This document shows, piece by piece, positions 15,902 through 46,641 of a stretch of 64,000 bases of DNA. The first letter of the stretch is position 1. The number at the start of each line of letters is the position of its first letter. The DNA is taken from IMG/VR virus record IMGVR_UViG_3300028584_001238; one strand, 5' to 3'. This stretch comes from a virus. The position numbers were made by a program, and so were the translations under genes. The notes beneath the pieces were generated by a model. The model was given only the letters and a program-made list of their open reading frames with translations, made no database searches and had not been told where the DNA came from.

Positions 15902-16483
15902 TTATTTTTGCAAATTGAGCTTTTCTTCGCCATGCTTTTCATGTTCTGCAGGCTTATCTGAATTAGGTAATATCTTATTCAAACTGAGCAATGTGGTGAC
16001 GTATTTCCCCACCAAGTTACTTTCTGGAACATATCCCCAGAAACGGCTGTCGTAAGAGTGATTAATGTTATCACCAATGGCAAAATAGTAACCAACTGGA
16101 ACAACAGCTTTTTTCATATCCGGCATATCAGTGGGCATTTCATTAATTTTAAATGAATGGTCATTGAAGTAAACGGTATCACCCGCTACTGCCACAATAC
16201 GTTTTACATAATTGGTGCTTTCATCCAGTGGCATTCTAAACACAGCAATATCACCACGTTCTGGATGGCCTGTTTTTAAAATCTCAATTTTAGTGAAAGG
16301 TATTTTTAGTCCATAACTATGAACATCAACCAGTATAAATGATTTTTCATCAATGGTCGGTATCATCGATCCAGTAGGCACATAAGATGGATTATAAGCA
16401 AAAGATTTGAAGGATAAGATAGCAACAAGTATAAGAATAGTTGTTTTGTCTAATTTTATATAATTAATAAATTTACTGAACAT
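15902..16483 (-). CDS. lepB: signal peptidase I (peptidase S26)
   Basis: TM anchor, VPTGSMIPT (catalytic Ser), RGDIAVF, YVKRIVAVAGD (catalytic Lys), GDN..HSYDSRFWG. Confidence 0.93.
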   Translation of the reverse strand: MFSKFINYIKLDKTTILILVAILSFKSFAYNPSYVPTGSMIPTIDEKSFILVDVHSYGLKIPFTKIEILKTGHPERGDIAVFRMPLDESTNYVKRIVAVAGDTVYFNDHSFKINEMPTDMPDMKKAVVPVGYYFAIGDNINHSYDSRFWGYVPESNLVGKYVTTLLSLNKILPNSDKPAEHEKHGEEKLNLQK

Positions 16484-17703: not shown

Positions 17704-18204
17704 TTATTCTTTGATGAATACGTTTTTGTAGTTCGCTTTCAAAGGTTTCAATCCTTTGACTTCCTGTGAAGTAGCGGGCTGGCAATAACGCAAATAAGAC
17801 ATGATTGGGCACATCTTACTCATAAACCCACGATCTTTATCAGAAACACAGACTGTTTGCCATGCAAGGGCTGTCTGTGATTGTTCACGATTACAAATAG
17901 TCAACATATAGCTACCGGCTGGTTCTACATTGTATGACTTTTCTTTTGCTTCAATCTTTACGGATACAACAGGTTCCGCTACGTTTTCAGTCTCAGGATC
18001 ATCAATAATGCTTGATGCGGCAACTGTATTAATAATAGCCGTGCTAACCCCAGTATTAGCATAAGCACCAAAGCTCATTAAACACAACGACATCAGCATT
18101 AGACCAACAATTTTTTTCATCATTTTAAAGCTCCTAGTTAAATGGTTTTTGTATACAACATTCCACGAGATTTTTCTACTTTTACAGATTTGTTTAACAC
18201 CCAA
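17704..18204 (-). CDS. exported protein
   Basis: Likely start at MMKKIVG, with a signal peptide ending AYA. Confidence 0.65.
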   Translation of the reverse strand: MGVKQICKSRKISWNVVYKNHLTRSFKMMKKIVGLMLMSLCLMSFGAYANTGVSTAIINTVAASSIIDDPETENVAEPVVSVKIEAKEKSYNVEPAGSYMLTICNREQSQTALAWQTVCVSDKDRGFMSKMCPIMSYLRYCQPATSQEVKGLKPLKANYKNVFIKE

Positions 18205-18662
18205 GAAAAATGCTCTACAGCATGGTTATTAGGGCGAATAACAATCAAATTATCCGCTACCGTTGAAAGCCCATAAAGCATAGTATTCAAGTAAGACGAT
18301 TCAACAAGGTCAATGGCATAGCTAAAAACAATCACATCAACCTTGGGCATTTCAAAGTTGCCATTAGCAATATCTTCGAAAGAATATTGGAAACACTCAT
18401 TATGGGTTTCTTTTATATAACGGGAAAACATGAATTTGTCACACCCAACAATGCTATCTACGGATTGAGTTTTAGCAAGGTGCTTAGAGACAAGGCCATC
18501 ACCACAAGCAAAATCAAGCACGCTTTTAAAGTCTTTTTTCCAAAGTTGGTCAAGACAGTTCAACGCGAAGGCAGCATGAGGGTTATGATACGTTTCAGCA
18601 TGATCGCTGTAATAGGTATCAACCCCCAAGGTTTCGTATTCTTTGCGTATGGATAAAGTCAT
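18138..18662 (-). CDS. class I SAM-dependent methyltransferase-like protein
   Basis: Motif I VLDFACGDG, then IVGCD and DVIVFSYA. Confidence 0.8.
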   Translation of the reverse strand: MTLSIRKEYETLGVDTYYSDHAETYHNPHAAFALNCLDQLWKKDFKSVLDFACGDGLVSKHLAKTQSVDSIVGCDKFMFSRYIKETHNECFQYSFEDIANGNFEMPKVDVIVFSYAIDLVESSYLNTMLYGLSTVADNLIVIRPNNHAVEHFSWVLNKSVKVEKSRGMLYTKTI

Positions 18663-19401: not shown

Positions 19402-20079
19402 TTAAATATTTAACATGTCCGTTAATAAACCTAATTTTTTATAATCATCATGTGTTGCCGATTCATTAATTTTCCATATCTCAAAGATCTTTTCCCGGTA
19501 GGAATAAAAATCACTACTTAAAAAATCACCTTGACCATTATAATTAAAAACCAATTGAATAAAATGAAATTGATCAAGGCTAGTCTCCTTTGTAATCAAC
19601 TGAGCCATTGGATTAGTGTCACCATTATCCTTAAAAGATGGTATTCTAAGTTCAATAGAAATTAAAAACTTATCTTCTTTCGTTAAATGAGTAAATGATA
19701 TAACTGCATATATTCGACTTAGTAAAGTGGAAAGCACATATTTACCATCAATAAGCGACCTAAAACGACAAGCATTAAAAATAGATAATAGATTATTAAT
19801 ATTTTTCATAACTTTACAAATTATAGGATCTTTAAATTTTGAGCATAATGTATTGTTTTCAACATAAAGCATGTCATAGAATGTTGTAACAACGCCATAA
19901 TCCATACCATATACATCTTGCATATGAACACTTGGATTAAATGGGCCTTTTACATTACATTTATGTTTAGATTCATATTTAGGATTTTTTAGTTCTATAC
20001 CAAAATTATCTAAAAAAGATTTATTAGATAAAATTATTTCTTTTTCATATAGAATTTCTTTTGAACGTGTTCTTTTCAT
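19402..20079 (-). CDS. hypothetical protein with C-terminal MxxI tag
   Basis: Ends DYKKLGLLTDMLNI; paralog of the next two genes. Confidence 0.8.
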   Translation of the reverse strand: MKRTRSKEILYEKEIILSNKSFLDNFGIELKNPKYESKHKCNVKGPFNPSVHMQDVYGMDYGVVTTFYDMLYVENNTLCSKFKDPIICKVMKNINNLLSIFNACRFRSLIDGKYVLSTLLSRIYAVISFTHLTKEDKFLISIELRIPSFKDNGDTNPMAQLITKETSLDQFHFIQLVFNYNGQGDFLSSDFYSYREKIFEIWKINESATHDDYKKLGLLTDMLNI

Positions 20080-20093
20080 GTTTATACCTTTGT

Positions 20094-20816
20094 TTAAATG
20101 GAAATCATATCCGACAGTAAACCAAGTCTTTTATAGTCAATCTCTTGGCAGTCTTCGGTAATTTCCCATACATTTATCATGCGTTTCTTATATCGTTGAA
20201 TATCATTGATAATACTGTCACCTGTGATTGAGTAAATACAATTAAAACCCGATGGGTCATAAAAATGTTGAATGGCTGTCTGTTTAGTCGTTAAATAATA
20301 AGCATCACCTGTTGTTCTAAGAGAAATTTTAAAACTAACCTGAATAGTAATGCTATCAGTTTCTTTAATGTATTTGAACACAAGCCAAGGTTTAACATTG
20401 GGTAAAACTGGCAAATATTCAATGTAATCGTTAGTCAGACGAAAACTTTCAGTAATGCCTAGATATTGATTAACATCGTTTAACATAGTCTGAATGATAG
20501 GCGATTTTAAGGCGGATGAAACGATTCCATTATCAAGCGTAATGATGTTTTCAAATGAAAAACAAACATCACCAAACCCAGATAAATAGATATTAACATC
20601 ATGCCCATCATCTGATTTTGCGGTGTATTCGCCAAATAAAGATGGCTCCATATCATGAATAGAGATATTCAGATGCTCAAAAATCAATTGTTTAACATCA
20701 ATAATCTTTTCAAGTGTTGATTTCTGAGGTGCAATAGGATAAACCATTTGTCTTAACGCTCGGCCATATGACGATTCTTCTGTTTCTTCGTTAGAGTTAA
20801 TATCATCATTCATCAT
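20094..20816 (-). CDS. hypothetical protein with C-terminal MxxI tag
   Basis: Ends DYKRLGLLSDMISI. Confidence 0.85.
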   Translation of the reverse strand: MMNDDINSNEETEESSYGRALRQMVYPIAPQKSTLEKIIDVKQLIFEHLNISIHDMEPSLFGEYTAKSDDGHDVNIYLSGFGDVCFSFENIITLDNGIVSSALKSPIIQTMLNDVNQYLGITESFRLTNDYIEYLPVLPNVKPWLVFKYIKETDSITIQVSFKISLRTTGDAYYLTTKQTAIQHFYDPSGFNCIYSITGDSIINDIQRYKKRMINVWEITEDCQEIDYKRLGLLSDMISI

Positions 20817-20823
20817 TAACTCC

Positions 20824-21471
20824 TTAAATATTAATCATGTCAGTTAAATCACCAAGACGTTTGTAGTCAATATCACTACTATTTTCATCAATATTCCAAA
20901 CCTTTAAAAGTCTGGTCTTATAAGTTAACAAATCACTAAAATAGTTTGAACCATTTGCATGATAGACGGCTTTAAATCCAGACGGTTCATAACCATGTTG
21001 AATAATGACATCTTTTGTTGTGATGTAAATAGACTCTTCTGATTCAATAGTGGGATTTAAGTCAAGATGAATCATCATATTATCACACTCAACATTATAT
21101 TTGAAAATAATAGAAGGTTTGATATTGTCTAAAATAGGATAGAATACGTCTAGATCCCATGTTGTAAAACGTAAGGCGTCGAAAATATAAAAGAAAGAAT
21201 TCATCTCTTTTACAAACTCATTAATCATCGGATCATTGAGTTTGGAAACTAAAAGACCATTTTCAAGATGCAATAAATTTTTAATACCAATGTAGAGATC
21301 GGTTTGGTTTAAAGCATAAATATCGACTGGATAATCCCCAGAAGCCACATAGTCTCCGTGGCTTTCACGAGTGACATTAGTAAAGTCAATACCAAATTTA
21401 GCGACCATAATTTTCCGTGCAGACTCAATACTGGTAAGATGGATGGGATCAGATTCGTGATAGCTTCTCAT
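20824..21471 (-). CDS. hypothetical protein with C-terminal MxxI tag
   Basis: Ends DYKRLGDLTDMINI. Confidence 0.85.
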   Translation of the reverse strand: MRSYHESDPIHLTSIESARKIMVAKFGIDFTNVTRESHGDYVASGDYPVDIYALNQTDLYIGIKNLLHLENGLLVSKLNDPMINEFVKEMNSFFYIFDALRFTTWDLDVFYPILDNIKPSIIFKYNVECDNMMIHLDLNPTIESEESIYITTKDVIIQHGYEPSGFKAVYHANGSNYFSDLLTYKTRLLKVWNIDENSSDIDYKRLGDLTDMINI

Positions 21472-22094
21472 ATCATCACCATATCATTAAGTGCAGTTAA
21501 TCTGACAACATCGTCCATTGTCATCTTTTTAGATTTACAGTAATCATGCACAAAATGGAACGCTTTATCAATTCCATATATTGATTGAAAAGCATCACCA
21601 ATATAGGAGATTTGGAATTCCTTTTGACACCCCGGCAAATCAATCTCATCCAGAAACACAAACTTTGCATAATGGGGGTAAGGAATAGCCTTAAAAATAA
21701 TTTGTGGGTTCTTGATTGTATAGGTGACAACAAATTTAAGTGTGAACTTAGTATCTTCGAAGAAATGGATATGTTTACCACCCATTGTCTTCAATTTAAC
21801 CACATTAAGCACCATAGCTCGCTCATTTATGTCATCAACAATGGGCTGAAGGTTAGAGCCAGCTTTCTTTAAAGTGAGATTTTGACCATCAAAGCCTATG
21901 CTTGATGTGAAAGTGATATTGGCACACTTATTAAAGATATAGATGCGAGCTGGGCCAAGCGATGTCTTGGCTGTATAAATAGTATGTTGATTTTTAACCA
22001 AACACATACTGGTAATATCAATGTCATAGACAGATTTCATACGGTCCACAACTGTCTTCAATTGTTCTTCATGTGCCATGCAATAACACTCCAA
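21468..22094 (-). CDS. hypothetical protein with C-terminal MxxI tag
   Basis: Ends LTALNDMVMI; ATGA overlap with the next gene. Confidence 0.8.
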   Translation of the reverse strand: MECYCMAHEEQLKTVVDRMKSVYDIDITSMCLVKNQHTIYTAKTSLGPARIYIFNKCANITFTSSIGFDGQNLTLKKAGSNLQPIVDDINERAMVLNVVKLKTMGGKHIHFFEDTKFTLKFVVTYTIKNPQIIFKAIPYPHYAKFVFLDEIDLPGCQKEFQISYIGDAFQSIYGIDKAFHFVHDYCKSKKMTMDDVVRLTALNDMVMI

Positions 22095-22133
22095 AAAGTT
22101 TAGTTGATTATAGCATAAAACTAAATTAAAGAC

Positions 22134-22173
22134 AATAAAAATGCCAACGTCACATCACTATGAGTTGGCATTT
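22134..22173 (-). terminator. intrinsic terminator of the ncRNA unit
   Basis: Stem AAATGCCAAC...GTTGGCATTT followed by a T-rich tract on the minus strand. Confidence 0.7.
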
Positions 22174-22183
22174 ATTTAAAAGT

Positions 22184-22252
22184 TGGCCCACCACAACGGA
22201 GTCGAACCGTTCCCTTTAGCTTTTAGAGGGCCAAGGTCAGCCTTAGTGGCAG
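22184..22252 (-). ncRNA. D-arm-less tRNA-like element with CUA anticodon-like loop and encoded CCA
   Basis: Acceptor CTGCCAC/GTGGTGG-G-CCA, T arm AACGG-TTCGACT-CCGTT, stem TTGGC/GCTAA around C-CTCTAAA-A; only 11 nt where the D arm should be. Confidence 0.7.
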
Positions 22253-22257
22253 ATTTT

Positions 22258-22612
22258 GTTGCGAAAACAATCATAATCATGGTGTGCTATTACGCCAAAA
22301 GAGAATTCAGCCTTACCATTTCTGGGGTGCCTCCTTACTTGACCAAGACCACAACCACGGCAAATTCTTACATTATTGCAAGAACTGGGCGTTTTTGGCT
22401 GAGACGTTTTGATCTGCAAAATCTACTTTAATGTGGATTCGATTTCGACAAACCGTGGCTCACTTGTCACCGATACCTTTAAATGACCGCTAAATCATTT
22501 AAACCCGATGCTTACCATCACTGTATCCCAAACACCTGTGGCAACCGCTCTACTCATTAAAAGATGGCTGCTTTTAAGCCCACTTTCCAAGATTACATCA
22601 TTGCTTTACAAC
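22258..22612 (-). ncRNA. large structured RNA containing a 23S rRNA GTPase-associated-centre (H43/H44) mimic
   Basis: ~25-bp 5'/3' closing stem; GTGGGCTTAAAAGCAGCCATCTTTTAATGA and GCGTAATAGCACAC match 23S H43/H44; internal helices; own promoter and terminator. Confidence 0.8.
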
Positions 22613-22647
22613 GAGGCCATTATACGACAATTCATGGCCTTTGGCAA
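22613..22647 (-). promoter_or_regulatory. sigma70 promoter of the ncRNA
   Basis: TTGCCA-N17-TATAAT-GGCCTC (GC-rich discriminator); predicted +1 at 22612 is the first base of the closing stem. Confidence 0.8.
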
Positions 22648-22666
22648 CACCTTTTTCATCAAAAAA

Positions 22667-23224
22667 TCATTTATTTTCGTAGGAATCGACAACATCTTTA
22701 TGATTTTTAGCAATCGTATCAAAATTGAATGTCTTTTCGTCTTCGACATACTTTCTGATGGCATTAATGAATTCTACCGGAATCATCTGACCATTAATAA
22801 AGTTTTCTGTTGGCATGTTTTCATAAAAACCACCCAAATAAAATTCAATCCCTTCTGTTTGAATTTCAAGTAAACGAGCCAAGGGCTGACCTAATTGACC
22901 TGAGAACTTGTAAGTGTAGAATGCGTCAGGTTCTGGAATAATTTCACTCAGGAAAAGCGATTCTTTCTCTGGATGATTGAATATGTAATAGATGAAAGAA
23001 AACACGAGAGAAGGATACTGCCGACGAAATTCTTGGTCATCATTCTCATAAGCTTTAATCTCTTTCAGTACAAGTTGTTTGATGTCACCATTACGAACAA
23101 ATACAGAAGCCTTACGCAATGCTTTACGAGCATCACGGTAATTTAGATAAAATGTTTCTGCTTTATCAACATATTCATTGATCACTTTAATGGATTCAAT
23201 AACTGACATGTCTTTTGTAATCAT
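22667..23224 (-). CDS. hypothetical protein
   Basis: 185 aa; GAGGA RBS. Confidence 0.8.
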   Translation of the reverse strand: MITKDMSVIESIKVINEYVDKAETFYLNYRDARKALRKASVFVRNGDIKQLVLKEIKAYENDDQEFRRQYPSLVFSFIYYIFNHPEKESLFLSEIIPEPDAFYTYKFSGQLGQPLARLLEIQTEGIEFYLGGFYENMPTENFINGQMIPVEFINAIRKYVEDEKTFNFDTIAKNHKDVVDSYENK

Positions 23225-23286
23225 TAATAAGTCCTCTTTTAATATGCAGAGTGTATCACAAGTGGACCGTTTTTGTCATCAAATGG

Positions 23287-24252
23287 TTAACACTTTGCCA
23301 TTTCAATGACAGGTTTAATATTGGCTTTAAAATATTCATAATATTCTTTTGTTAACGCCACCGGAACATTATCAATAATTTCATAATTTGATTTAAAGTC
23401 TTCAATAAATGGTAGTAAATATGAGACAATCGTTTTTTTAACATCATTATTAAAACGAGAATATTCATTAAAAATAATAACGTCATTGTGAATTAATCTA
23501 GTATTTAAAACAAAACCACAATAAAATTGAATATTCTCACTAATAATTTGTTCTTCATCATTTGAATTAATTAAACTCTCTGCAACATTGATTTCATGAA
23601 CTTTATATTGTTCTGATGTAAGTAGTCTAACTTGTAATTCAAGCTTTTTACTTTGATTTTGTTCAAATTGTTTAGAGTGAATGGTAGCCGTTGCCTTGTC
23701 AAATGACAGCAAAAAAGAAACAAAAGGAAAAATGCCCTTCATGCTTGAACTTTCATAACCAATTGATTTAATAATACTGTTCACATCATAATTAGACTCA
23801 TTGATAAGAAGATAACTAGGAAGATGATTTAACATATTTTTGTTGTGAGACAAATCAAGGGTAGTTTTGGATGAATCGATCAGCAACATATCAGCATGTT
23901 CTTTAAAAAATAACATAGATGTTTCGGTTAATGACGAATAAATATGTTCAAAAACAATCATAGAAATTGGAAGAATATTATGAAGGTCATCATAATACTG
24001 ATTTACATCTTTAATAAGTTCTTTTATTGTATCTTTTCCAATTATTCCACGACTTTTTCTTAAATGAACATTAATGCTCGAAATTATAATATCTTTATAC
24101 TCATCAACATTACTATGTGTTAAATGATAGATTTGAGCATTATCAAAACCTAATCGTTGGTTTGTTTCATCAATAAAAGACAAAAGGTTAGCAGACAAGG
24201 TTCTTTTAGACGCCTTCTTGAGAAATTGTTTGTTATGTTGAATGATTTGCAT
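23287..24252 (-). CDS. hypothetical protein with C-terminal MxxC variant tag
   Basis: 321 aa; ends PVIEMAKC. Confidence 0.8.
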   Translation of the reverse strand: MQIIQHNKQFLKKASKRTLSANLLSFIDETNQRLGFDNAQIYHLTHSNVDEYKDIIISSINVHLRKSRGIIGKDTIKELIKDVNQYYDDLHNILPISMIVFEHIYSSLTETSMLFFKEHADMLLIDSSKTTLDLSHNKNMLNHLPSYLLINESNYDVNSIIKSIGYESSSMKGIFPFVSFLLSFDKATATIHSKQFEQNQSKKLELQVRLLTSEQYKVHEINVAESLINSNDEEQIISENIQFYCGFVLNTRLIHNDVIIFNEYSRFNNDVKKTIVSYLLPFIEDFKSNYEIIDNVPVALTKEYYEYFKANIKPVIEMAKC

Positions 24253-24374
24253 TAATGTGACCTCTTAGAACATTCGATAAATATTTTGAAAGAATACCAT
24301 ATTTATAACAAAAAATAAACTAAAATTTTAATATTTTCATAATTGTTGACATTTAATAGGATAGTGGTCTAATT

Positions 24375-25433
24375 ATGCAAAGGGGAAAAATAATGCAAGA
24401 AGAAAAAATAGAAAAAAAACTATTATTTGGCTGTTTTATAGGAATATTTTTATACACTTGTTTAATGAGTTTAGGCATGGGTTTAACAAATGGGATCATG
24501 GAAATAATCACCTTGTTTTATAATTCTGAGAGTTACACCAAATATTTAAGATTAACGACTGGTTCTGGAATGGATCTGTTTAGAAGTCAACTTAATTTGG
24601 TTTATGCAACTGTGTTTATATTTTTAATTGCATTCAAATATTATGCTTTAGGCAGACATTATAAAACGGCATACTTACAATTAACATCTAAATCAATATT
24701 GTTATGTCTTATAACATATTCAGTAGGCAAAATAGTAACAGATGTGAATCCAGAAAAAACAGAAACAATACTCACAGCAACCTACATAATATATGCCTTA
24801 ATTATTCTTTTGACATTGTTTTGTGCCAAAAAGTTTTTTCATGATGAAATGAGTGTTAACAAAGGCTTCTTGAAACTAGCTGTCTCATTTTTTGTTATTG
24901 TGGCACTCATTGTTGCAACAGAACAACAAATTGAAAATGACAAAATAAACAAAAGACATGAACTTTCTGCAAGCTTATGTGGTGCTCCAAGTTATAATAA
25001 GATATCAGGTGTTCTGGGTATTGAAGTGACTGAAGTGGTTGTTAATGATTACATTGAAAAATTAGACAGTTTAGGAGAAATTATCTATTTTAAAACCAAT
25101 TATGAAAAATTTACTAACGAAGAATTGATTGGTTTGAAAAAAGAATTTTTAAATTACTACACCACCAATAAATCAGACTATATGAAAACAAAATATCCAG
25201 AAGAGTTTAAGAAATCCATACTGGAAATTAGAAGAGAGATAACTGATAGTCAACTTAGCCGAGATATGGCAACTATCAATGCTTTTGATAAAGGTGGTAT
25301 CAATGCGGTTGCTGAACTGATTAATAATCAGACAGAAGGATTAACTAACTTACAACAAATATTAATATTGAAAAATAAAGACAGTGTTAAATTCAATAAA
25401 GATCATGGTTTATTGATCACAACCTGCAATTAA
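24375..25433 (+). CDS. multi-pass membrane protein
   Basis: About five N-terminal hydrophobic segments followed by a soluble domain. Confidence 0.8.
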   Translation: MQRGKIMQEEKIEKKLLFGCFIGIFLYTCLMSLGMGLTNGIMEIITLFYNSESYTKYLRLTTGSGMDLFRSQLNLVYATVFIFLIAFKYYALGRHYKTAYLQLTSKSILLCLITYSVGKIVTDVNPEKTETILTATYIIYALIILLTLFCAKKFFHDEMSVNKGFLKLAVSFFVIVALIVATEQQIENDKINKRHELSASLCGAPSYNKISGVLGIEVTEVVVNDYIEKLDSLGEIIYFKTNYEKFTNEELIGLKKEFLNYYTTNKSDYMKTKYPEEFKKSILEIRREITDSQLSRDMATINAFDKGGINAVAELINNQTEGLTNLQQILILKNKDSVKFNKDHGLLITTCN

Positions 25434-27731: not shown

Positions 27732-28424
27732 ATGAAATATGATTACCGACATCCAGAAACACCAGAAGAAATTAAAAACGTGAAATCCAAGCTTTCTGTT
27801 GCAACGTATGAACAAAAAAACCTATTTGCCCGTTTCATGGCGGGTGATTATGAATGGGCAGAGTTTCAAGCTGATAATGGCTGTAAAACATTGGTTGAGT
27901 TGGGGTATTACATTTCTACTCGACCTCCAATTGAAGACATTATTGCAGCTTACTCTGATTTTGGGATTATTGCCGAACCCGTCAAAGGGTCTGCATGGCA
28001 TACTCAATCAATGGTAGCGGTCAATCATGATGGTATTCAATATGGACTGGATGATCGTGGTCGATATGCTGCTGAGAAGGATAAAAACAGTATTGAACAT
28101 GCTATCAAGCATTTTAAATTGATGAGCACTCACTACCATAACCGCATTAAGACAATTCATAACCATCTGGTATCTAAATCAAATGAGCCTATTTGGGTGT
28201 TAGCGGGTGGTGGTTATCAAATCCAAGCTTCATTTGGTAACAAGAATGGTTATATTGCTACGCTTGATTTGGATATGAATAGCTTTGTAAAAGTAGGTGT
28301 TGAAAATTCACAAAGGGCAAAAGTTATTAAAATTAAAAAATATGAATTATCTATGGAAGCTAAAAATTTGGAAGGGTTTTTTAGCGATTTTAAAGAAAAT
28401 AACTTTGTTTTAAAGGTTAGATAA
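27732..28424 (+). CDS. hypothetical protein
   Basis: 230 aa ORF. Confidence 0.8.
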   Translation: MKYDYRHPETPEEIKNVKSKLSVATYEQKNLFARFMAGDYEWAEFQADNGCKTLVELGYYISTRPPIEDIIAAYSDFGIIAEPVKGSAWHTQSMVAVNHDGIQYGLDDRGRYAAEKDKNSIEHAIKHFKLMSTHYHNRIKTIHNHLVSKSNEPIWVLAGGGYQIQASFGNKNGYIATLDLDMNSFVKVGVENSQRAKVIKIKKYELSMEAKNLEGFFSDFKENNFVLKVR

Positions 28425-29224
28425 TGAATGAATTAGAAATGAAAGAAAATTTTACATTTGACTTCTTTAATCCTGATTTCATCAGCGGGGGTAAAAAAGC
28501 CTTATCATTTTTGGTGCCAAATGAATTCAAGTTCTTTTTGAGTCATAAAATTATTAGTTGGCTAAATGTAGTTAATGAGTCAATAGATTGTGAATTTATT
28601 TTTGAAAGAGTGATGCCAGATGACTTTACATTACAAGGACAATCTCATTTTTCATTAAATATTAATACACATAATGGAGATGGGACTATTTATTTATATT
28701 ATGACAAAAACAATCAATTTACTCATGCCTGTTTATTATTTTTACAGAATGTGTATAAAAATGAAAATAAATTCCCTAAAAATAATAATCTATTTGAAAT
28801 AGAAATAAACATAAATAATAATATGGAAGTCGATAATTATATATTAACAAGGAAGGTGTCTTCATCAAATATACTGGGTTTGCAAATATCATATAAATTT
28901 GATTGTTTAGGTAAAAAATTGAAAGATTTTTTACTTTTAGATACTTATGAAAAAAACCAGAAATATGATCCGTACTTGTTGAGTTTTACAAAAGAAAATT
29001 TGAATGAACTAGATTTTTTTGATGACTTTTTTAACGAAATCATTGAGACTATTCTCTTGTCACCTAATGATTTTTTAGAATTAACAACACAATTTACAAT
29101 AAATAAAATAAATAGCAAAGAAGAATTTGAAATATTTTATGATGAATTAAGAGATTATTATAAGACTAAAAATTTATCTTATTTAGAAAATGCTTTGGAA
29201 GTTGTTGAAATGATAACTATTTAA
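28424..29224 (+). CDS. hypothetical protein with C-terminal MxxI tag
   Basis: First of three tandem paralogs (TFD...PDF...H.I..WLN); ends VVEMITI. Confidence 0.85.
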   Translation: MNELEMKENFTFDFFNPDFISGGKKALSFLVPNEFKFFLSHKIISWLNVVNESIDCEFIFERVMPDDFTLQGQSHFSLNINTHNGDGTIYLYYDKNNQFTHACLLFLQNVYKNENKFPKNNNLFEIEININNNMEVDNYILTRKVSSSNILGLQISYKFDCLGKKLKDFLLLDTYEKNQKYDPYLLSFTKENLNELDFFDDFFNEIIETILLSPNDFLELTTQFTINKINSKEEFEIFYDELRDYYKTKNLSYLENALEVVEMITI

Positions 29225-29242
29225 TTAAACAGGATTATTAAA

Positions 29243-30031
29243 ATGAAAACTGATGAAACGGTAACATTCGATTATTTGAAACCAGACTTTTCTATTTTAA
29301 AAGGTAGAAGAATCGTTATGGTTAATCTTCAACCTGAATATCAATTTTATTTTAAACATAGGATTGTTCATTGGCTTAATCAAATGAATCAATCGTTTGA
29401 CCCAGAAACAAGTTTTGACGCGGTAAAAATTGAACGTTATATGGTAGGTGACAAAGGGACAGCCCTAATCGTCTATGGTTTTAAAAATCTTGCTGGCACT
29501 CTTCACTTTAATTATGACAAAGTTGGAAATTTTAAAAATATAAGTTTTTCAACTGAGGTTGGGATTTATAACAATCAGTTAAAGTTCCCATCTACCAGTC
29601 AATTTTTTACTGTGACTGCCGATATGAATACACACAATGAAATGCTCGATTATGTTGTAGAGCGTTCACTAGACATGTCAGATACCTCATATGACGATTT
29701 CATGGTAAAGTATTCGTTTACTGCTGATGGACAGAAAACAAAAGATTTATTAATTCTGTATGATTACAAATCGAAAGATGAGAACATGATTATTAATGCT
29801 GATGTTGAAAGTGTAGAAAACTTTGATGATTTTTTCAATAAAAATATAAATGTTATTTTACAATCATTAGAGACATTCATCGACATGTATCCACAATTTA
29901 GTATGGGTCTTGTAAACAACAATGAAACGCTTGACCTTTTTTATGCCGAAATGAAAAAAATGTATAAAGATGGTGTATTTAATAAAGGCTTCGATGAAAA
30001 TATTACGATTATCAAGATGATGACTATTTAA
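29243..30031 (+). CDS. hypothetical protein with C-terminal MxxI tag
   Basis: Tandem paralog; ends IIKMMTI. Confidence 0.85.
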   Translation: MKTDETVTFDYLKPDFSILKGRRIVMVNLQPEYQFYFKHRIVHWLNQMNQSFDPETSFDAVKIERYMVGDKGTALIVYGFKNLAGTLHFNYDKVGNFKNISFSTEVGIYNNQLKFPSTSQFFTVTADMNTHNEMLDYVVERSLDMSDTSYDDFMVKYSFTADGQKTKDLLILYDYKSKDENMIINADVESVENFDDFFNKNINVILQSLETFIDMYPQFSMGLVNNNETLDLFYAEMKKMYKDGVFNKGFDENITIIKMMTI

Positions 30032-30054
30032 CTAGAAATGAAAAGGAATACAGA

Positions 30055-30849
30055 ATGACAATTAATGAAAGTGTTACATTTGATTATTTAAAACCAGACT
30101 TTTCTATTTTAAAAGATAAACGTCGAACAGATGCAGATATGTTACCAGAGCATATCTTCTATTTTAAACATAGAATTATTCATTGGCTTAATGAAGTTAA
30201 TGAAAAAAATGATCCAACTATTAATTTTGAAAACATCAAAATCGATCAATATGTTATTGGAAAAAATAAACAAGTAAATGCAAAATATAAATTAAAAGAT
30301 ATTGATGGACATATAATGTTCTTATATGATTATGATGATAATAATAATTTTATTGAAGTTGATCTTGAATTAAAAATAAAATCGGGTGTTTTTGATCATC
30401 TAAAATTTCCAAATTCAAGTCATTTTTTTGATCTTCAATTTGTATTAGATGAGAAAAATGAAATTGATTGTTATTTTATAAATCGACGCATTGATGTTTA
30501 TAAAAATGATACATTAGGCTATCTAATTCGATATGTATTTTACAAGGATACTCAAAAGAAAGATCACTTAGCCTTATTCGACTGTGTAAATCAAGAATCA
30601 TTAATACTAGACATTGATAATGGCTTTGAACTTTCTGAATTTGATGATTTTTTCAATGTTCACATCAACGATATCCTAAAATCCCCAGAAGCATTCGTGA
30701 CGATATATCCCTATTTCAGTGTGAAACAAGTAAACAGTAACGAAACACTAGAGGTTTTTTACAAAGAGTTGAAAGAAGCCTATAACAAGGGCATATTTGA
30801 TAATGGATTATCTGAAAACCTTCATGTTGTAAAGATGGCAGGTATTTAG
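30055..30849 (+). CDS. hypothetical protein with C-terminal MxxI tag
   Basis: Tandem paralog; ends VVKMAGI. Confidence 0.85.
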   Translation: MTINESVTFDYLKPDFSILKDKRRTDADMLPEHIFYFKHRIIHWLNEVNEKNDPTINFENIKIDQYVIGKNKQVNAKYKLKDIDGHIMFLYDYDDNNNFIEVDLELKIKSGVFDHLKFPNSSHFFDLQFVLDEKNEIDCYFINRRIDVYKNDTLGYLIRYVFYKDTQKKDHLALFDCVNQESLILDIDNGFELSEFDDFFNVHINDILKSPEAFVTIYPYFSVKQVNSNETLEVFYKELKEAYNKGIFDNGLSENLHVVKMAGI

Positions 30850-45334: not shown

Positions 45335-46641
45335 GTTCAAACCTGATCATTTACTTTTTTTGCTCTTGACTTTATTCTATTTAGTTCTATAATTATCTGA
45401 ATTAAATAGGGTTATTGATGATTAAATCTCATAAAATTGAACTGAAGCCAAATAAGTCTCAACTGACTTATTTAAGCCAATCTGCTGGTACAGCTAGATT
45501 TGCTTATAATTGGGCTTTGTCTCAATGGATAGATGATTATGAATATTATCAAAAACATCCTTTTTCTTGTTCCATTTCTCCCGCTTCAACTCGTTATGAA
45601 GGTGAATTAAGAAAACGTCTAAACTCCATTAAAAAGAAAGAATTTCCTTGGATGTACAACGTTTCCAAATACGCACCACAACAAGCTATAAAAAATTTAG
45701 GTGCTGCGTTTGTCAATTTCTTTGCTAAACGTGCTCAATTTCCTAAATTTAAAAATAAATATCATCACGATTCTTTTGAAATTGGCAATGATCAATTAAA
45801 AGTTGATGGTCGGTATTTAATCATTCCTAAGTTAAAACCGATTAAAATGAAAGAATCATTACGATTTAATGGTTCTATCAAAATTGCTGTTCTGTCCAGA
45901 ACGGCAGGTAAATGGTTCGTGTCTCTTTCTATTGAAGTTGATGACGAATCCATTGTTCATAGCAAAAACCACGCTATTGGTATAGATCTTGGTATTAAAG
46001 CATTTGCAACGTACTTTGATGGTGTTAAGCATTGGAATTCTCCAACGCTTAAACCTTATCGAATATTGCAAAATAGAATTAAAGTCCTTTCAAGACAACT
46101 TTCAAGAAAGGAAAAAGGTTCTAACAATCGTTATAAAGCAAGAGTTAAATTGGCTAAATTACATTCACGTATTGCCAATATTCGTAAAGACTATTTACAT
46201 AAACTCACTCACTTTTTAACGAACAACTACTCTATTATTGGTATTGAAACACTTGACGTAAAAACTATGTCTAAGAATAGACTTCTCTCAAAGTCTATTC
46301 TTGATGCAGGATTTTATGAATTTTCAAGACAATTACAATATAAGTCTAATTTATATGGATCAACAATAATTAAAGCCGATAAGTTTTATCCATCGACAAA
46401 ACTCTGTTCAAAATGTAATTATAAATTAGCCACACTAAGTTTAAGTGTTAGAGCTTGGACATGTCCAAGCTGTAATACTTACCATGATAGAGATGAAAAT
46501 GCTTCCACGAATTTATATAATTATGCTGTTAGTTCAACAGTGAAAGTTTGTGGAGAGATGGTATAAATAAGCGATTATTTATACCACTTATTGAAGCAAG
46601 AAATTAATGATGATCAGATTTGATCAGATTTTTTAGAACGG
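45335..46641 (+). mobile_element. non-autonomous IS607-like element (tnpB only); boundaries approximate to a few bp
   Basis: Left end TCAAACCTGATCA is the inverse of the right-end TGATCAGATT repeats; right end ...AGAACGG; no tnpA; splits a gene. Confidence 0.7.
45415..46566 (+). CDS. tnpB: TnpB RNA-guided endonuclease (IS200/IS605/IS607 family)
   Basis: N-terminal ARFAYNWAL, RuvC-I GIDLG, RuvC-II IETL, Zn ribbon CSKC/CPSC, RuvC-III HDRDENA. Confidence 0.95.
   Translation: MMIKSHKIELKPNKSQLTYLSQSAGTARFAYNWALSQWIDDYEYYQKHPFSCSISPASTRYEGELRKRLNSIKKKEFPWMYNVSKYAPQQAIKNLGAAFVNFFAKRAQFPKFKNKYHHDSFEIGNDQLKVDGRYLIIPKLKPIKMKESLRFNGSIKIAVLSRTAGKWFVSLSIEVDDESIVHSKNHAIGIDLGIKAFATYFDGVKHWNSPTLKPYRILQNRIKVLSRQLSRKEKGSNNRYKARVKLAKLHSRIANIRKDYLHKLTHFLTNNYSIIGIETLDVKTMSKNRLLSKSILDAGFYEFSRQLQYKSNLYGSTIIKADKFYPSTKLCSKCNYKLATLSLSVRAWTCPSCNTYHDRDENASTNLYNYAVSSTVKVCGEMV

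Follow-up and report, generated by a model that had tools for sequence, protein, structure and literature searches.

A Phage Non-Coding RNA Whose Ends Resemble the uL11-Binding Centre of 23S Ribosomal RNA and Which May Act as an Off-Ribosome Decoy

The stretch of DNA analyzed here, referred to as the window, comprises the 64,000 nucleotides (nt) of the virus record IMGVR_UViG_3300028584_001238. An initial annotation, made from the letters alone, proposed that the minus strand encodes, between 22612 and 22258, a stand-alone RNA that imitates helices H43 and H44 of the GTPase-associated centre of bacterial 23S ribosomal RNA (rRNA) around a large structured insert. The gene was followed up by computational comparison with 23S rRNA, with relatives in phages and metagenomic viruses, and with assembled contigs of RNA libraries. 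The interpretation that we favor, to which we assign a probability of about 0.4, is that this is a phage non-coding RNA whose ends rebuild the uL11-binding centre and which may serve as an off-ribosome decoy for the uL11 protein of the host.

Results

The window is phage DNA of a giant, mostly unannotated kind. A Pfam family was found in 7 of its 97 open reading frames (ORFs), and PHROGs matches, including one to a virion structural protein, in 10 of the 59 ORFs scanned, which were the longer ones of the 97. Its nearest relatives are IMG/VR contigs, 152, 179 and 437 kilobases (kb) long. Read along the minus strand from 22647 to 22136, the locus consists of a promoter, a G at 22612, a 355-nt segment with mutually pairing ends, five unpaired bases, a 69-nt module resembling a transfer RNA (tRNA), and an 8-base-pair (bp) hairpin followed by a T-run. 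The features are listed below, with nt counted from 22612 and 23S positions in the E. coli numbering.

22619..22647, minus strand: sigma-70-type promoter TTGCCA-17-TATAAT, matching 11 of 12 consensus positions; the predicted +1 is the G at 22612
22266..22612, minus strand: RNA bounded by a head-to-tail joint, 347 nt (joint of the X15 contig, loose end of the X19 contig)
22587..22606, minus strand: 5' strand of the closing helix (nt 7-26), in place of H42; only the last two pairs (G1054, G1055) are rRNA-like
22552..22588, minus strand: H43-like half, equivalent to 23S 1054-1090 by alignment to E. coli, with the A1067 loop GGCUUAAAAGCAGCC and the UUUAAU junction
22296..22551, minus strand: inserted domain of 256 nt (nt 62-317), with a covarying AGAG/CUCU opening helix and an invariant UUUG end
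22307..22332, minus strand: hairpin module within the insert, AGGC-A-CC-CCA-GAAA-UGG-UAA-GG-CUGA, of a type with a GNRA or UAAC loop
22281..22295, minus strand: H44-like half, equivalent to 23S 1091-1105 (GCGUAAUAGCACACC) by alignment to E. coli, with the A1095 loop
22262..22279, minus strand: 3' strand of the closing helix (nt 334-351) from RNAalifold pairs; the joint sets the 3' end at nt 347/348
22184..22252, minus strand: tRNA-like module of 69 nt, with acceptor and T-arm covariation in the relatives L049 and L056
22136..22171, minus strand: terminator-like hairpin (AUGCCAAC...GUUGGCAU) and T-run, read from the sequence and kept in the relatives L049 and L310

The promoter was located where the initial annotation had placed it and is also kept in L049 and L310. 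The joint in the X15 RNA contig, described below, begins exactly at its predicted +1. The terminator-like hairpin was not listed by a terminator scan because its loop exceeds the length allowed by that scan. The predicted transcription unit passes 22258 and continues into the tRNA-like module and the T-run hairpin, both of which were missing from the first account. The module begins 5 nt after the closing stem drawn in that account, and is composed of a 7-bp acceptor stem with G3.U70, a canonical T arm, a reduced D arm, an encoded CCA and a loop of the CUCUAAA type that is readable as a CUA (amber) anticodon. Conservation of the module extends to L049, L310 and L056, and its acceptor and T-arm pairs covary. 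ARAGORN found no true tRNA at this position, and the module itself was called neither by ARAGORN nor by the Rfam model RF00005. It is predicted to be a cutting signal for RNase P.

To compare the RNA with rRNA, the E. coli 23S gene rrlH (L007) was retrieved by accession and a scripted alignment was used. RNA nt 30-59 and 23S 1059-1088 are identical at 26 of 30 positions, RNA nt 318-331 and 23S 1091-1104 at 13 of 14, and extension by hand showed that the copy reaches G1054/G1055 and C1104/C1105, the tip of H42. The match to H43 scored 40, compared with 21.9 +/- 2.4 (maximum 33) in 200 shuffles. The H44 half taken alone scored 23, within the chance range (shuffle maximum 30), and was accepted because it is collinear with the H43 match and conserved family-wide. 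An 18-nt H43 motif occurs once in the window, where 0.05 occurrences are expected at up to 3 mismatches. The H44 hairpin GCGUAAUAGC, with A1095, is present in this copy. A1067 and A1095 make contacts with uL11, thiostrepton, EF-G and tRNA. These results uphold the proposal that a copy of the uL11 and thiostrepton site, including both loops, lies within the closing stem of the RNA itself. The conserved core of H42, which is the uL10 site, is not copied, and only the pairs 1054:1105 and 1055:1104 are rRNA-like.

Local alignment of the RNA with 23S rRNA found nothing rRNA-like outside the two segments, and short runs such as TCATTTAAAG were at chance level. The sequence between the segments is indeed not recognizably rRNA, as had been claimed, and no further 23S sequence flanks the gene, so it is a stand-alone, element-encoded RNA and not a piece of an rRNA operon. 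The initial annotation had expected that an Rfam search would return a partial hit to large subunit (LSU) rRNA and otherwise no described family. The second expectation held, with no match at gathering scores in Rfam overall and only five chance-level hits (E 5-8.4) at E up to 10. The first did not, since the LSU models gave no match at E up to 10. With a database of that size, a blastn search of the RNA in E. coli genomes returned no match.

A pattern of the 29-nt 5' half was also searched in one genome per prokaryotic species. All 120 loci listed were true 23S genes and none was a stand-alone copy, a result that is silent on whether cellular genomes carry the family. Many real 23S rRNAs share the 29-nt 5' half; therefore, the 5' half of the phage RNA is letter-for-letter ribosomal. 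At the insert point, the 23S genes listed read ...AAAGAGU followed directly by GCGUAAUAGCUCAC, and many real 23S rRNAs read GAGU followed directly by GCGUAAUAGC. Since the 23S genes are contiguous across U1090 and G1091, the phage insert sits exactly between these two nucleotides.

The RNA belongs to a family. Partial blastn matches were found in the Pseudomonas phages UNO-G1W1, Astolliot and pf16, Aeromonas phage 4_4572 and Vibrio phage 2.275.O, as well as in a 910-kb Pseudomonas megaplasmid. All six records have tRNA genes around or next to the element (those of the megaplasmid were read from the sequence), and in five of them a tRNA is found within about 35 nt downstream; the Vibrio phage has an HNH nuclease gene there instead. 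Exact-pattern scans of IMG/VR returned 50 loci with the 5' half and at least 120 loci, estimated at 320, with the phage-specific 3' half. After removal of duplicates, 116 distinct elements of 95-441 nt were collected, leaving out 20 matches to the 3' half that lacked an H43-like sequence (up to 7 substitutions allowed) in the 560 nt upstream, and three matches of the 5'-half set without H44 by the pattern used. ARAGORN identified tRNAs in the 600-nt flanks of 62 of 110 IMG/VR elements and none in those flanks of the other 48. All 143 flanking tRNAs share the strand of the element, and the tRNA begins 0-18 nt past the closing helix in 23 of the 110. The first account had not noted this link to tRNA arrays. 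The H43/H44 motifs and the closing stem, by which the initial annotation had proposed to judge homologues, are kept across the collected members. The gene in the window is a typical member of the family with a large insert and its own promoter.

Two cultured phages showed further peculiarities. Astolliot has a second, more diverged H43-like sequence (GGGCTTAGAAGTAGCCATATTAAG...; L003 2570-2620) in the same intergenic stretch, ~300 nt upstream of its family member, which may be a second copy. In the member from Vibrio phage 2.275.O (L005 3005-3230), the H44 loop seems to be replaced or expanded (TTTGGCGACATCC...AATCGCACAC).

Conservation of the fold was assessed in a MAFFT alignment of 16 short members, using a structure drawn from the rRNA model. 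The fraction of paired cells was 89.7%, compared with 37-57% when the partners were slid by 1-3 columns. The covariation score was 0.482, compared with 0.150 in shuffles, and none of 500 shuffles reached it. Changes on both sides were seen in 11 of 13 pairs of the closing helix and in 4 of 4 of the insert-opening helix. Closing helices have 6-24 pairs across the family, are unrelated in sequence between members, and have nothing in common with H42 beyond two pairs. In the window, the end-to-end closing stem described by the initial annotation is real: RNAalifold on four relatives gave 16 pairs, which abut G1055:C1104.

A larger set of 87 members was gathered through the 3' half only and is therefore unbiased for the 5' half. 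The insert-opening helix is fully paired in 56 of them. The pair 1058:1080 is U-A in 38, A-U in 21, G-C in 20 and C-G in 4 members; 1057:1081 is A-U in 77 and C-G in 9; and 1064:1074 is C-G in 81 and A-U in 5. At the lone pair 1082:1086, 48 members have U-A, 25 have C-G and 11 have A-U; L310 and the variants from the RNA runs X16 and X20 have A-U. As this pair covaries, the family retains a tertiary feature of the centre besides the helices. According to PMC6689051, a Watson-Crick pair at 1082:1086 closes the UUAAA loop and stabilizes the centre in the crystal structure. Invariant in the 87 members are G1055, G1059, U1060, G1063, C1072, C1075, A1085, G1087 and U1090, with A1088 and G1089 each kept in 86. 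In the 3' half, G1091, C1092, G1093, A1098, G1099 and C1100 are invariant in the 16 aligned members, A1095 is kept in at least 90%, and, unlike rRNA, the family has an invariant UUU plus R before G1091. The invariant core positions point to rRNA-like constraints and not to a mere scaffold.

The 256-nt insert is common to L049, which is 88.7% identical over 976 nt around the gene, to L310 and, more distantly, to L056, on the 437-kb contig. RNAalifold on the four sequences showed four insert helices kept by compensatory changes, at alignment columns (close to nt) 103-108/140-145, 110-119/126-135, 159-172/190-203 and 229-236/245-252. The initial annotation had also drawn four helices in this region, two of which, TTTAAATGAT/GTCATTTAAA and TTCTTGCA/TGTAAGAA, are kept by compensatory changes, while AGCCACGG/CCGTGGTT and GATAC/GTATC are not. 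The pairing AGCCACGG/CCGTGGTT is broken in L056, where GCCACAGG pairs better. In the four-sequence fold, AGA pairs with UCU elsewhere and not with the CUCU that precedes UUUG; the AGAG/CUCU pairing of the opening helix was trusted over it on the strength of the family-wide covariation. Across the family, the site of insertion is fixed, and inserts of anything from a few tens of nt to about 360 nt are found there; members of 95-105 nt are nearly devoid of one, and the inserts of different clades have no common sequence. A hairpin module, xGyC-A-CC-CCN-loop-N'GG-UAA-GG, is present just before the 3' strand in 31 of the 116 elements. Its loops are GNRA or UAAC, and its closing pair and flanking pair covary. 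Its internal loop of 3 nt by 4 nt (CCA / UAAG) is not a motif that we recognized. Two other candidate features of the insert were rejected. The sequence AGUAAGGAGGCACC, considered as a sarcin-ricin loop mimic, is not conserved in the relatives and is part of the hairpin module. A short ORF with a Shine-Dalgarno-like AAGGAGG (about 22333-22292, minus strand) loses both the AAGGAGG and the ATG in the relatives.

Evidence for the transcript comes from assembled contigs of sequencing runs, from which level, strand and true ends are not readable. Six RNA runs (X15-X20) belonging to four studies yielded one contig each, of 284-403 nt, within 22212-22612, in agreement with the claim that the gene has an RNA product. 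A contig of the DNA run X1 is linear across the gene (22092-22749). The RNA contigs cover no part of 20500-22211 or 22613-24500, and such lack of cover is no evidence. The contig from X15 differs from the window at 4 places in 350 nt and reads nt 293-347 and then nt 1-295, i.e., it joins 22266 to 22612, with a shorter side of 55 letters and no ambiguous letters. The contig from X19, which belongs to another study and has 12 differences, continues past 22606 with 16 end letters that match 22265-22280 with one mismatch. Molecules or complementary DNAs (cDNAs) therefore exist in which nt 347/348 is joined to nt 1 or nt 7. The explanations that remain are a circular RNA, a jump of the reverse transcriptase from one copy of an abundant RNA to another (template switching), or tandem DNA in the samples. 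Under a circle or template switching, the ends of the RNA lie at the positions of the joint. The head-to-tail joints place these ends at 22612 and 22266/22265, and not at the 22258 that was first assigned.

In three studies the contigs break off at 22264-22270, a point past which the DNA run X1 continues, which is at most a weak hint that these stops mark the 3' end. A 45-nt loose end of the X16 contig beyond 22236 had no match in the window. A second RNA contig from X15 (126 nt, depth 18.5) matches only the H43 stretch 22557-22589 and diverges on both sides; it is either another family member or the real 23S rRNA of that sample.

With the ends defined by the joints, the closing helix has a 7-nt 5' overhang beside a recessed 3' end and is thus shaped like a hairpin loop that has been broken. 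In tRNA, such broken loops are sealed by T4 Rnl1-type ligases. The family of the T4 Rnl1-type ligase, PF09511, was found in three of five carrier records, including both close relatives (G001 and G002), RNA_ligase PF09414 in all five, and RtcB in one. These ligases show a capacity of the carriers and are not proof.

The surroundings of the gene contain other elements worth recording. Two tandem arrays of paralogous genes without a Pfam family are found at 19402-22094 (minus strand) and 28424-30849 (plus strand); immediately downstream of the RNA, four genes share the ending D-YKRLG-L-DM-I, and three on the other strand have ...MITI or MAGI at their ends. An ORF at 18138-18662 (minus strand), 3.6 kb downstream of the RNA gene, matches PHROG 19153, 'tRNA methyltransferase' (E = 1.2e-47), with weak Pfam methyltransferase hits. 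The window also includes a phage-borne signal peptidase I at 15902-16483 (minus strand; Peptidase_S26, E = 3.3e-35) and a full-length gene of the IS605 OrfB/TnpB type at 45415-46563 (plus strand; Pfam OrfB_IS605, Cas12f1-like TNB domain).

Discussion

The portions of the GTPase-associated centre that were and were not copied suggest a partner. In PMC1635324, uL11 and thiostrepton are described as contacting H43, and the site of uL10 as being helix 42 'almost completely'. As H43/H44 are copied and helix 42 is not, uL11 is the best candidate partner. Titration of uL10, which had been suggested together with that of uL11, is unlikely because H42 is not copied and the closing helices share only two pairs with it. 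A gene search found no uL11 gene in any of the five carrier records, so the partner would be that of the host.

We hypothesize the following pathway. Transcription would start at 22612 and proceed through the tRNA-like module to the terminator. RNase P may then cut before the module, a place held by real tRNAs in relatives, and exonucleases would shorten the 3' tail by 12-13 nt, as far as the closing helix. The two ends may then be ligated by an Rnl1-type enzyme of the phage, which would make the RNA circular. Once folded, the core would bind uL11 in the manner of the 58-nt rRNA domain. Ribosomes would thereby lose uL11, or any factor that depends on the uL11-RNA surface, possibly resulting in weaker uL11-dependent RelA signaling. 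The outcome of binding could be fewer uL11-bearing ribosomes and weaker RelA activation, capture of a factor that reads the surface, or protection from an attack on the centre. The strongest form of this pathway, in which the RNA is freed by RNase P, trimmed and sealed by an Rnl1-type ligase into an exonuclease-proof circular sink for uL11 that silences stringent-response signaling during infection, we consider improbable.

Several observations weigh against a uL11 decoy. Position 1101, U in rRNA, is A in this copy and a purine in all 16 aligned members. This copy has U1082.U1086, which is not a Watson-Crick pair. A1067 is replaced in 13 of the 87 members, which weakens contact with factors or thiostrepton as a common purpose of the family. 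A1088 and G1089 could be drawn into pairs with the insert and the invariant UUU, to the detriment of the tertiary fold, and the fold of the single sequence is not unusually stable when compared with shuffles (z = -1.1). Most of the cellular uL11 is in ribosomes, and the contigs give no RNA level. As regards the circle, the joints were seen in one contig in each of two runs, where template switching or tandem DNA is possible; no ligase gene was found among the ORFs of the window, and the ligase counts in the carriers come with no background frequency.

The same copied loops could instead serve as bait for another reader of the GTPase-associated centre, in which case the RNA would protect or retune the ribosomes. 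Candidates for such a partner are a defense nuclease or modifying enzyme, an inhibitor of the thiopeptide type, a translational GTPase, or RelA. This is unlikely, if less so than the other alternatives. This copy and most members retain the loops contacted by factors and thiostrepton, A1067 and A1095, and a family that resides beside phage tRNA arrays, in carriers with RNA-repair ligases, would fit in a tool kit for the protection of translation. However, the variation of A1067 in the 13 members speaks against it. To our knowledge, no toxin attacks H43/H44 (the literature search was not aimed at one), and factors bind the centre weakly without the rest of the ribosome; both points count against a decoy of this sort. 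A doubtful possibility is that the rRNA-like core is just a sturdy, protein-clad scaffold and that the function resides in the inserted domain. The fixed site that accepts inserts of such different sizes, the conservation of the 256-nt insert with that of the 437-kb phage, including invariant blocks and the four compensated helices, and the recurrence of the hairpin module could be explained in this way. Nonetheless, the core is the only part common to all members, the members of 95-105 nt manage almost without an insert, and the inserts of different clades share no sequence.

An even less probable role is that of a cis-acting spacer, devoid of a partner of its own, that aids the processing or stability of tRNA-array transcripts. 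The tRNAs within 600 nt of 62 of the 110 elements, all on the same strand, and those that start 0-18 nt downstream of 23 elements are what such a spacer would lead one to expect, but 48 of the 110 elements have no tRNA in these flanks, the copy in the window lacks a true tRNA and comes with a promoter and a terminator of its own, and a spacer does not need invariant rRNA loops. Finally, a dead remnant of an rRNA gene acquired by capture, or a portion of a protein-coding gene, is very hard to credit as an explanation of the locus. The identity to rRNA extends over about 50 nt and short ORFs do overlap the RNA. However, a dead fragment would not show strong covariation and an architecture conserved in 116 elements, relatives have lost the frame preceded by AAGGAGG, the frames are disrupted by indels from one relative to another, and RNA contigs lie on the gene. 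On balance, a decoy for host uL11 remains the reading that we prefer, tentatively.

Known RNAs resemble this one in part. The bacterial 23S GTPase-associated centre itself (E. coli 1051-1108) has the same 1054-1090/1091-1105 sequence, both hairpin loops and a fold closed by a helix, and shares with the family the 1058:1080 and 1082:1086 pairs, the latter being U.U in this copy. In contrast to the ribosomal centre, the phage RNA is free-standing, H42 is replaced by an arbitrary helix, a domain followed by UUUR is inserted at 1090/1091, and position 1101 is a purine. Ribosomal-protein leaders such as the L10 leader (RF00557) are likewise RNAs that imitate, off the ribosome, the rRNA site of a ribosomal protein. 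Leaders of the L10 type are cis-acting, loose mimics, whereas the phage RNA is a separate gene of near-identical sequence; RF00557 gave no match, the ORFs downstream have no Pfam family, and no ribosomal-protein gene adjoins. The large ornate phage-associated RNAs GOLLD and ROOL gave no match with their Rfam covariance models.

Other likenesses concern the layout. MALAT1/mascRNA is a long structured RNA, eukaryotic and nuclear, the 3' end of which is formed by a tRNA-like module. The phage RNA likewise precedes a tRNA-like module, and its cleavage is suggested by the layout and by the tRNAs of the relatives. Species 1 and 2 of phage T4 are stable RNAs in the tRNA cluster with no assigned function; they and the phage RNA are alike, by description, in being phage-encoded stable RNAs transcribed with tRNAs, and we know of no rRNA-like sequence in species 1 and 2. 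In archaea, circular non-coding RNAs and rRNA intermediates have ends that are juxtaposed by a helix and joined by the splicing endonuclease and RtcB at a bulge-helix-bulge. The head-to-tail ends of the phage RNA are similarly juxtaposed by a helix, while its circle is only putative, and an Rfam scan of it found neither a bulge-helix-bulge motif nor a ribozyme. A junction motif of a viral RNA resembles U1082-A1086, a local likeness of one loop, whereas the phage RNA copies the whole domain.

Genes for tRNAs, a few ribosomal proteins and translation factors are known from viruses. The literature searched, largely outside subscription journals, held no description of a free-standing phage copy of the GTPase-associated centre; hence, we rate a free-standing, conserved copy of a functional centre of rRNA in viruses as a new kind. 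Cultured carriers exist (pf16, UNO-G1W1, Astolliot and Aeromonas phage 4_4572), so a direct test is possible. The family, with more than 100 variants and a tolerated insertion site, is a natural test bed for the fold of the centre. If the joints are real, this would be a rare circular RNA in a bacterial virus. If the RNA binds uL11, or a reader of the uL11-RNA surface, it would give phages a means of manipulating the factor-binding stalk base or stringent-response signaling while staying off the ribosome.

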